Of a DNA stretch of 64,000 nucleotides, positions 896-1,133 are shown piece by piece (position 1 is the stretch's first letter; each line of letters starts with the position of its first letter). Where the stretch lies: the NCBI GenBank assembly GCA_963792415.1, contig CAWBVY010000004.1, positions 448,001-512,000 on the forward strand, written 5' to 3'. The notes beneath the pieces were generated by a model. That model saw nothing but the letters and a program-made list of their open reading frames with translations, was not told the origin of the DNA and searched no databases. Source of the DNA: Candidatus Deferrimicrobiaceae bacterium. Lineage in GTDB: Bacteria; Desulfobacterota; Deferrimicrobia; Deferrimicrobiales; Deferrimicrobiaceae. A program made the translations under genes and the position numbers.

Positions 896-1102
896 ATGCC
901 GCTCTACGAGTATCTGTGCGAAAAGTGCGGTCAGCAGTACGAGTCGTACAAGCGGATGACCGAAGAGAAGAAAGAGGAAACGTGCCCCGCGTGCGGCGGC
1001 CGCGCGGTGAAGATGGGGATCTCCCTGTTCACCGCGAAGGGGACCTCGCCCACGGGAGGCTCCTCCTGCGGGATCGGGCCGCGCCGTTCTCCGTTCGGGT
1101 GA
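896..1102 (+). CDS. FmdB-family zinc-ribbon protein; candidate selenoprotein (extends to 1108 if UGA is read as Sec)
   Basis: MPLYEYLCEKCG...CPACGG (two CxxC motifs) with a Ser/Gly tail ending SPFG-TGA-GCG-TGA. Confidence 0.88.
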   Translation: MPLYEYLCEKCGQQYESYKRMTEEKKEETCPACGGRAVKMGISLFTAKGTSPTGGSSCGIGPRRSPFG

Positions 1103-1113
1103 GCGTGATCACC

Positions 1114-1133
1114 GGCCCGGCGGTCGCCGGGCC
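1114..1133 (+). promoter_or_regulatory. Candidate bacterial SECIS element
   Basis: Perfect 8-bp stem GGCCCGGC/GCCGGGCC with loop GGTC, starting exactly 11 nt after the UGA at 1100-1102; no U-tract, so not a terminator. Confidence 0.65.

Follow-up and report, generated by a model that had tools for sequence, protein, structure and literature searches.

A predicted FmdB-family selenoprotein with penultimate selenocysteine and a SECIS-type hairpin in the 3′ untranslated region

Introduction

Recoding of UGA as selenocysteine (Sec) by SelB, acting through a selenocysteine insertion sequence (SECIS), is an established bacterial mechanism. A penultimate Sec is familiar from mammalian thioredoxin reductase, a large flavoprotein with a eukaryotic SECIS, whose C-terminal Gly-Cys-Sec-Gly places the residue on a flexible arm that allows pairing with Cys. 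Here we describe a gene from a Candidatus Deferrimicrobiaceae bacterium whose product, an FmdB-type zinc ribbon, is predicted to carry Sec as its penultimate residue. The gene occupies positions 896 to 1108 of the forward strand of a 64,000-nucleotide (nt) stretch of DNA, hereafter the window (GenBank assembly GCA_963792415.1, contig CAWBVY010000004.1, positions 448,001 to 512,000). From comparison of the sequence with its relatives, we consider this very probably a genuine selenoprotein gene, encoding a predicted product of 70 residues.

The closest described systems fall into two groups. Selenoproteins of the FmdB family were predicted from Global Ocean Sampling (GOS) reads, where two reads stand against 807 Cys homologues (Zhang and Gladyshev 2008, PMC2398784). 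In these proteins Sec replaces a zinc-knuckle cysteine, giving CxxU, or UxxU in the table of a 2026 review (PMC13188914), and the family also features in PMC9312934. The second group comprises UXX-star families 1-3 and HUGP/GUXX-star (NF041114, NF041211, NF047338, NF041212, and NF045501), attributed in the table of PMC13188914 to Haft and Tolstoy 2025. The Sec of UXX-star proteins is C-terminal, and the SECIS must therefore follow the stop codon.

The FmdB gene and its predicted product

From an ATG at 896, the open reading frame (ORF) runs to a first TGA (896..1102, forward strand), encodes 68 amino acids, and ends ...SPFG-TGA-GCG-TGA. Read as a selenoprotein gene, it extends to 1108 and comprises 70 codons plus stop: the UGA at 1100..1102 would specify Sec at residue 69, the GCG at 1103-1105 alanine, and the UGA at 1106..1108, which lies 5 nt ahead of a hairpin, would be the true stop. 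The predicted read-through product ends ...SSCGIGPRRSPFG-U-A. A sequence-only reading of this DNA had picked out the same ending and proposed a hidden selenoprotein terminating in ...U-A, which standard annotation would halt at 1102. Its coordinates and description proved exact on re-reading, and public records do give a protein of 68 amino acids, named ‘zinc ribbon domain-containing protein’ or ‘FmdB family’; the proposal itself draws support from clade conservation, the hairpin, and the Sec machinery of the genome, each detailed below. The read-through sequence is absent from a 15-billion-protein collection.

Membership of the FmdB family was defined by a hidden Markov model score over the curated cut-off together with two N-terminal CxxC motifs about 17 residues apart. 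The window protein reaches 46.6 bits for PF09723 (cut-off 34.4) and 53.9 bits for TIGR02605 (cut-off 31.3), and its knuckle cysteines, C8, C11, C30, and C33, are invariant in a 22-sequence alignment, placing it within the family. TGA codons occur in the gene at residue 69 and at the stop only; all four zinc-knuckle positions are Cys codons, and the knuckle Sec of the GOS proteins (CxxU or UxxU) is absent from the window gene. The four-cysteine zinc ribbon (residues 1-45) is followed by a Gly/Ser-rich flexible linker and a conserved tail, C58-G-x-G-x-R-R-S-P-F-G-U69-A70. Cys58 is likewise invariant across the 22 clade sequences, in keeping with the earlier suggestion that an upstream Cys is available to pair with the penultimate Sec. 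AlphaFold2 models a beta zinc ribbon over residues 3-43 with predicted local distance difference test (pLDDT) scores of 70-85, and assigns a pLDDT of about 50 to residues 46-70 (mean 67.9 overall); the low score is consistent with a mobile tail, and nothing more.

The hairpin after the first UGA

Downstream of the gene, in the 3′ untranslated region (UTR), lies a SECIS-type hairpin (1114..1133, forward strand). Its 5′ arm, GGCCCGGC (1114-1121), and 3′ arm, GCCGGGCC (1126-1133), form eight perfect Watson-Crick pairs around a GGTC loop (1122-1125), and the spacer between the first TGA and the stem measures 11 bases (1103-1113). RNAfold retains the hairpin in its minimum free energy structure. 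The sequence-only reading was right about the 8-bp stem with a GGTC loop 11 nt past the UGA and no U-tract, as it was about the spacing and loop of Escherichia coli fdhF: on the K-12 sequence, 11 nt separate the TGA at codon 140 from GGTTGCA-GGTC-TGCACC. The two elements thus share an 11-nt interval from UGA to upper stem and an apical GGUC; they differ in that the fdhF element is translated and its upper stem is shorter and imperfect, whereas the window stem has eight perfect, G/C-rich pairs and is untranslated.

An intrinsic (Rho-independent) terminator was considered for this hairpin and rejected: the stem has no T-run, the sequence that follows is AGCCGTGAGGAG, and a terminator scan did not flag it. 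In a search of Rfam nothing came near a gathering score, the top match reaching 16.7 bits against a required 41.8. Metatranscriptome contigs, which derive from relatives and whose uncovered parts carry no meaning, bridge the region with a likeness of at least 88%: record 6 of X1 (1062-1336) and records 26 and 27 of X5 (934-1268) run from the 3′ end of FmdB across the hairpin into the small ORF beyond it. These contigs lend weak support to the view that the hairpin does not terminate transcription; the support is weak because RNA libraries can contain DNA, and contiguity in an assembly is no proof of one transcript.

Orthologs in the clade

An initial search of 40 relatives returned 30 loci, 29 of which end in ...[SPF/HF/GF][GRS]-TGA followed by one codon, a stop, and a hairpin. 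The exception, L041, has the zinc ribbon alone in common, with a different tail and a TAA end. Among the 29 loci are 21 from the same genus (82-96% identity), six from another family of the class (49-59%), and two from other families of the phylum (39-44%). Loci from the relatives, from public contigs, and from a 401-genome sample of the phylum together make up 38 clade loci. At each of them the Sec codon is TGA, not TAA or TAG, and a short tail in frame leads to a second stop and a hairpin. The tail is exactly one codon long in 37 of the 38, while L049 has four (U-A-G-S-C). This single codon takes 11 forms (GCG, GCA, GCC, GGG, GGC, ACG, ACC, TCG, AGC, GTT, and GTG), which encode A, G, T, S, or V only, and the second stop itself varies between TGA, TAA, and TAG. 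In many same-genus loci unrelated DNA replaces the sequence past the hairpin, with the hairpin itself kept. In the phylum search, all matches that reach residue 69-70 of the read-through query show one TGA, and a sense codon appears there in none.

The sequence-only reading had looked to homologues for a conserved Cys or TGA at this position accompanied by a hairpin, and had named TAA or TAG at the codon, without a conserved hairpin, as the contrary pattern. The part concerning TGA and the hairpin stands, as both are conserved; Cys at the Sec position was found in no homologue. The contrary pattern did not appear, TGA and hairpin being present at each of the 38 clade loci.

The wider FmdB family

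A broader sample of the family was drawn with the N-terminal motif MPLYEY[RQL]C, taken from an 8-sequence alignment, which yielded 80 loci, mostly other FmdB members. Because the N-terminal motif alone was searched, these loci are unbiased as to the C-terminus and usable as a control. Pooled and de-duplicated with the other loci, they give 129 unique FmdB loci. We call a locus Sec-type on its stop pattern alone, namely TGA with a second in-frame stop within six codons; 87 of the 129 qualify. A GC-rich hairpin lies 6-20 nt after the TGA in 80 of 87 Sec-type loci versus 5 of 42 others (Fisher p = 8e-20, a value inflated by non-independence among relatives, with 21 of the loci from a single genus). 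The 42 other loci stop with TAG (17), TGA (15), or TAA (10).

Sec-type tails are short and restricted in composition. One codon follows the TGA in 56 of the 87 and two codons in 21; the first tail residue is Ala in 49 and Gly in 21, spelled with synonymous codons (GCG, GCC, GCA, and GCT; GGC, GGG, and GGA), and Phe stands two residues ahead of Sec in 76. By record title, the Sec-type loci belong to metagenome-assembled genomes of Deltaproteobacteria/Desulfobacterota type, Acidobacteriota, Chloroflexota, Armatimonadota, and Thermodesulfobacteriota. In 84 of the 87 proteins the tail has a Cys 3-24 residues ahead of Sec, mostly 7-11, which extends to the wider family the pairing partner anticipated for the window protein. 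The three without an upstream tail Cys (L049, L054, and L144) have Cys only past the TGA, in U-AGSC, U-GTSGC, and U-GTSGC, respectively, a complementarity that is difficult to account for if the tail is not translated.

Protein collections present the same family in its trimmed form. Two protein searches returned 90 clusters apiece, and in both sets 84 terminate precisely at ...PF[GSR] or ...F[TSRVQ]; the remaining clusters are frameshifted or belong to other subfamilies, and F[GSTR]-C occurs in none. As a separate observation, eight genomes (G008, G009, G013, G016, G017, G024, G027, and G033) carry further FmdB paralogues with one TGA within the match. These probably belong to a wider subfamily of the ...GFT-U type, which the window’s genome seems not to possess.

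Conservation and covariation of the hairpin

Sec-type loci hold 60 distinct hairpin 5′ arms. Their loops are GGTC in 37, GTC in eight, and CGTG[ACT] in 12, and the distance from TGA to hairpin is mostly 10-13 nt. For a measure of covariation, sequences were anchored solely on the first GGTC found 8 to 40 nt past the TGA, which retained 56 of 89 Sec-type loci and 43 distinct 20-mers. Over seven flanking positions, 71.4% of cells are paired versus 52.7 ± 2.2 in shuffled data, and the covariation score is 0.409 versus 0.173; none of 500 shuffles reaches either value. Double changes occur in all seven pairs, and the unslid register exceeds all six slid ones, the next best of which pairs 55.8%. Cells left unpaired come largely from rows with a loop of 3 or 5 nt, or with a first GGTC that does not form the loop.

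Hairpin loops follow lineage. For instance, Chloroflexi FmdB loops read CGTGA, CGTGC, or CGTGT, and the selD hairpins of Chloroflexi have loops of CGTGT, CGTGC, GTG, or GTT. The FmdB loops of Desulfobacterota-like genomes and Acidobacteriota are GGTC, as in the SECIS elements of the window’s genome.

Selenocysteine machinery and other selenoprotein genes

The sequence-only reading had staked its proposal on the presence of Sec machinery, and the full set is found in the window’s genome: selA (555 bits), selB (324 bits), and selD (317 bits, with one in-frame TGA) all score over their curated cut-offs, and aragorn reports a tRNA-SeC with anticodon tca. The FmdB hairpin resembles the SECIS elements of its own genome. 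That of selD reads GGGCAGGG-GGT-CCTTGCCC and begins 12 nt past its UGA, and an OsmC-like gene (PF02566) with an in-frame TGA has a 7-bp stem, also 12 nt past the UGA. A third example is a glutaredoxin-like double selenoprotein gene beyond the window (C4:607905-608126, reverse strand; L160:406-627), with TGA at both Sec positions of UPYT ... GGS-U-G-V-stop. It belongs to UXX-star family 1 (NF041114; 110.4 bits, cut-off 72), and its 3′-UTR hairpin, GGTCGGCC-GGT-GGCCGACC, starts 11 nt after the UGA of the C-terminal GGS-U-G-V-stop. Because this curated gene combines a C-terminal Sec with a 3′-UTR hairpin, the architecture proposed for the FmdB gene is already in use in the organism.

Most of the 98 hits from a naive genome-wide scan for TGA, hairpin, and GGT loop were spurious long ORFs, as arise in a GC-rich genome, and the scan served for candidate picking only. 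One ORF, at C8:76137 (L161), has an in-frame TGA in KNKG-U-GNGTW with a GGTC-loop hairpin 13 nt on and matches no Pfam or NCBIfam model; it is a possible further selenoprotein.

Across other genomes, selA scores over the cut-off in four of five that carry a Sec-type gene and in three of five whose FmdB gene ends in TAG or TAA. In the Chloroflexi, selB passes the cut-off in four of five genomes, and selD with an in-frame TGA is present in five of five carrying a Sec-type gene. G009, which has a Sec-type gene, gave no selA match in the part of the genome examined.

Neighboring genes and the membrane peptide

Directly after the FmdB hairpin comes a gene for a one-helix membrane peptide (1154..1249, forward strand), found in 27 of 38 clade loci and read as MGEWIPLILFAAVIVLFRLLGGSGGG-U(1232-1234)-GPRC-stop(1247-1249). 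Its ORF of 26 codons (1154-1234) ends GGSGGG-TGA-GGC-CCC-CGG-TGC-TGA and is followed by a second SECIS-type hairpin (1251..1269, forward strand), with a 7-bp stem, CGCCGGC/GCCGGCG, and a CGUGC loop, 16 nt after the UGA at 1232. All 27 clade copies end in TGA, zero to four codons, a stop, and a hairpin. The tails read G-x(1-2)-C in the taxonomic family of the window, and GRN, GPK, GTR, KKE, GGR, or nothing in a sister family. The ORF matches no NCBIfam or Pfam model, and neither hairpin of the cassette resembles a terminator. The peptide, of roughly 31 residues, is probably a second, membrane-anchored selenoprotein, judging by these conserved endings.

Two side observations concern the DNA around these hairpins. 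In many same-genus relatives (L013-L016, L021-L023, and others), a shared stretch starting AAGTACTCCGGCGGAGTCGCCGCAGGAG, which resembles a small mobile or repeated element, is inserted directly past the FmdB hairpin and moves the ORF of the membrane peptide some 160 nt downstream. One metatranscriptome contig, record 20 of run X3, departs from the window at 1121, inside the first hairpin, and continues as CGTGCGCCGG..., which corresponds to the second hairpin’s loop and 3′ arm. This contig may represent a relative with joined hairpins and no membrane-peptide ORF, or an assembly artefact.

Upstream, a gene for a DUF2892 or YgaP-like membrane protein (693..884, forward strand; PF11127, 42 bits) has its probable start at the ATG at 693, in an ORF open from 585, and 33 of the 38 clade loci have a DUF2892 homologue directly ahead of the FmdB gene. 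Further upstream still, a sigma-54 activator gene ends at 480, ahead of a putative sigma-54 promoter, TGGCAC-N5-ATGC (613..627, forward strand), which has one mismatch to TGGCACN5TTGC. Window-wide matches to this element are not above chance (31 versus 36 expected); in 26 of 37 clade loci, TGG[CT]A[CT]-N5-NTGC lies 279-310 nt ahead of the FmdB start. Downstream of the pair, a 25-codon remnant of a DUF302 gene (1288..1365, forward strand) aligns by tblastn over 23 amino acids, with 83% identity, to the N-terminus of full-length DUF302. DUF302 (PF03625) occupies this place in 14 of 38 clade loci, as the remnant in the window and at full length in 13 relatives, and the gene appears to have been lost in the window’s genome. 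A terminator-like hairpin with a T-run (1627..1649, forward strand), after an ORF at 1394-1621, is the likely end of the transcription unit.

For the wider family, Pfam was run on 150 of 220 candidate neighboring ORFs. OsmC lies beside seven loci and DUF302 beside four; CsoR-like, ArsR, and AhpC/redoxin proteins are beside two loci each, and thioredoxin and rhodanese beside one each. These neighbors offer hints of a thiol or stress context, too scattered for the assignment of a function.

A proposed recoding mechanism and its alternatives

By analogy with described bacterial recoding, we infer the following course of events. At the UGA at 1100-1102, the hairpin and its GGUC loop, 11 nt on, would tether SelB-GTP-Sec-tRNA(Sec), and Sec would be inserted, then Ala. 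The second UGA, 5 nt before the stem, would be too close to the hairpin for recoding, and translation would end there. In essence, because this second UGA would terminate ahead of the hairpin, the SECIS would lie wholly in the 3′ UTR.

Several observations weigh against this interpretation. The fold z-score of the 71-nt stretch is only −2.16, and perfect 8-bp hairpins with loops of 3-8 nt number 21 in the window versus 14.9 ± 3.5 in 20 dinucleotide shuffles; among the 21, the FmdB hairpin alone has a GGTC loop. On account of that z-score and those 21 hairpins, the hairpin from a single genome is suggestive, not decisive, and the comparative data carry the case. TGA is the stop of 15 of the 42 control FmdB loci and is common in GC-rich genomes. 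The Sec machinery, while necessary and present, has no discriminating power within the phylum because selA was found in 371 of 401 genomes. Cys in place of Sec was found neither among the 180 protein clusters nor among matches in 44 of the 401 phylum genomes. Homologues with Cys for Sec exist for most accepted selenoprotein families, and are customary support, not a mechanistic requirement. Finally, what the tail does is a matter of surmise throughout: it may be a mobile arm that forms a Cys58/Sec69 selenenylsulfide or binds a metal or metalloid.

One alternative holds that the first TGA is a real stop, giving a 68-residue product with a tandem fail-safe stop, and that the hairpin is an element for mRNA stabilization or processing, or a leaky terminator. 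Public annotation does halt at 68 amino acids, GC hairpins are fairly common in the window, and the lack of a Cys-for-Sec homologue among the protein clusters and phylum genomes speaks for this explanation. It is nonetheless unlikely, given how much it leaves unexplained. TGA occupies the codon in 38 of 38 clade loci and in 87 of 87 short-tail loci, against TAG or TAA in 27 of the 42 other FmdB loci, and the second stop falls exactly one codon on in 37 of 38, where the chance expectation is roughly 3 in 64 for any one codon. Despite its 11 different forms, the codon between the two stops specifies a small residue in every case, the loop motifs match the SECIS loops of each lineage, and no T-run follows the hairpin. 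The three proteins with Cys only past the TGA are also difficult to reconcile with a stop ahead of it.

Two further explanations accept part of the evidence. UGA is the leakiest stop codon, and the tail codons look translated, so that UGA could be read by a near-cognate tRNA (Trp or Cys) or simply leak, with a hairpin that merely slows the ribosome. In spacing and GGUC loop the hairpin matches a SECIS that binds SelB, the carriers that were examined have Sec genes (selA in four of five, selB in four of five, and selD with an in-frame TGA in five of five), and a Trp or Cys codon, which would serve such a purpose better, was not seen; we rate near-cognate decoding as very improbable. Alternatively, the hairpin may bind SelB for regulation only, by titrating or sensing it, with no productive insertion of Sec, in the manner of the SECIS-like elements with a regulatory role in the E. 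coli selAB leader. That idea earns the least credence of all, since it leaves unexplained the in-frame tail, the second stop, the post-UGA Cys of three lineages, and an element that always sits 7-18 nt after the terminal UGA of one gene family.

Possible function and significance

Within the clade, the FmdB tail would probably work with the adjacent membrane peptide, which has the GGG-U-G-x-x-C end, and with the upstream DUF2892 protein. A tentative extension, which we hold as a conjecture with the odds against it, is that FmdB-Sec, the membrane peptide, and DUF2892, joined by DUF302 in relatives, constitute a sigma-54-controlled membrane selenol/thiol relay or a module for metals or metalloids. 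Both mobile Sec tails would then meet on the cytoplasmic side, and, across the very widespread FmdB family at large, the tails might be active sites in which Sec or Cys is the working residue.

Few small bacterial proteins without an assigned function are as common as FmdB/COG2331 zinc ribbons, whose C-terminal tails have passed for degenerate. A conserved Cys...Sec pair at the terminus suggests that function resides in the tail and offers a handle for experiments. Gene callers and NCBI annotation trim such proteins by two to seven residues, and selenoproteomes are therefore undercounted in Desulfobacterota-like, Acidobacteriota, Chloroflexota, and Armatimonadota genomes. The locus would also supply another natural bacterial SECIS located wholly in the 3′ UTR.

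Comparison with known systems

The 2026 review gives FmdB solely with a knuckle Sec (PMC13188914). Its Table 1, with 119 families, includes neither a zinc ribbon with C-terminal Sec nor a single-helix membrane peptide, and the words ‘ribbon’, ‘FmdB’, and ‘zinc’ are absent from the deep-Sep main text (PMC12013277). In the full-text literature no C-terminal Sec form of FmdB was found, though the family could yet be mentioned in Haft and Gwadz 2023 or Haft and Tolstoy 2025.

The GOS proteins are the nearest relatives by family: they share TIGR02605 / COG2331 membership, a bacterial origin, and a UGA recoded through a downstream hairpin. The window protein differs from them in having Cys knuckles, a penultimate Sec in the tail, a 3′-UTR SECIS, and no Cys form found. 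UXX-star and GUXX-star proteins, as tabulated in PMC13188914, resemble it in position, with Sec one to three residues from the C-terminus; these families and KCU-star are set apart, on the entries of that table, by glutaredoxin-like folds or by being otherwise unrelated. When nine read-through FmdB proteins were compared with NF041114, NF041211, NF047338, NF041212, NF045501, and NF033934, none matched at E <= 1; the library with these models does hit the glutaredoxin-like gene of the window’s genome. Dual CXXC motif small (seleno)proteins, modeled by NF041197, likewise combine two CxxC motifs with one Sec; this model was rejected because its hits stayed below threshold (E 0.008-0.6; 10-16 bits, cut-off 40) and were confined to the zinc knuckles.

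Mammalian thioredoxin reductase offers the comparison in tail design. Its Cys and Sec are adjacent, whereas those of the window protein lie 11 residues apart on a 7-kDa zinc ribbon. Recoding would follow the usual bacterial route; what the locus adds to known systems is a predicted penultimate Sec in the tail, an untranslated SECIS, the breadth of an uncatalogued subfamily, and a probable companion selenopeptide in the membrane.

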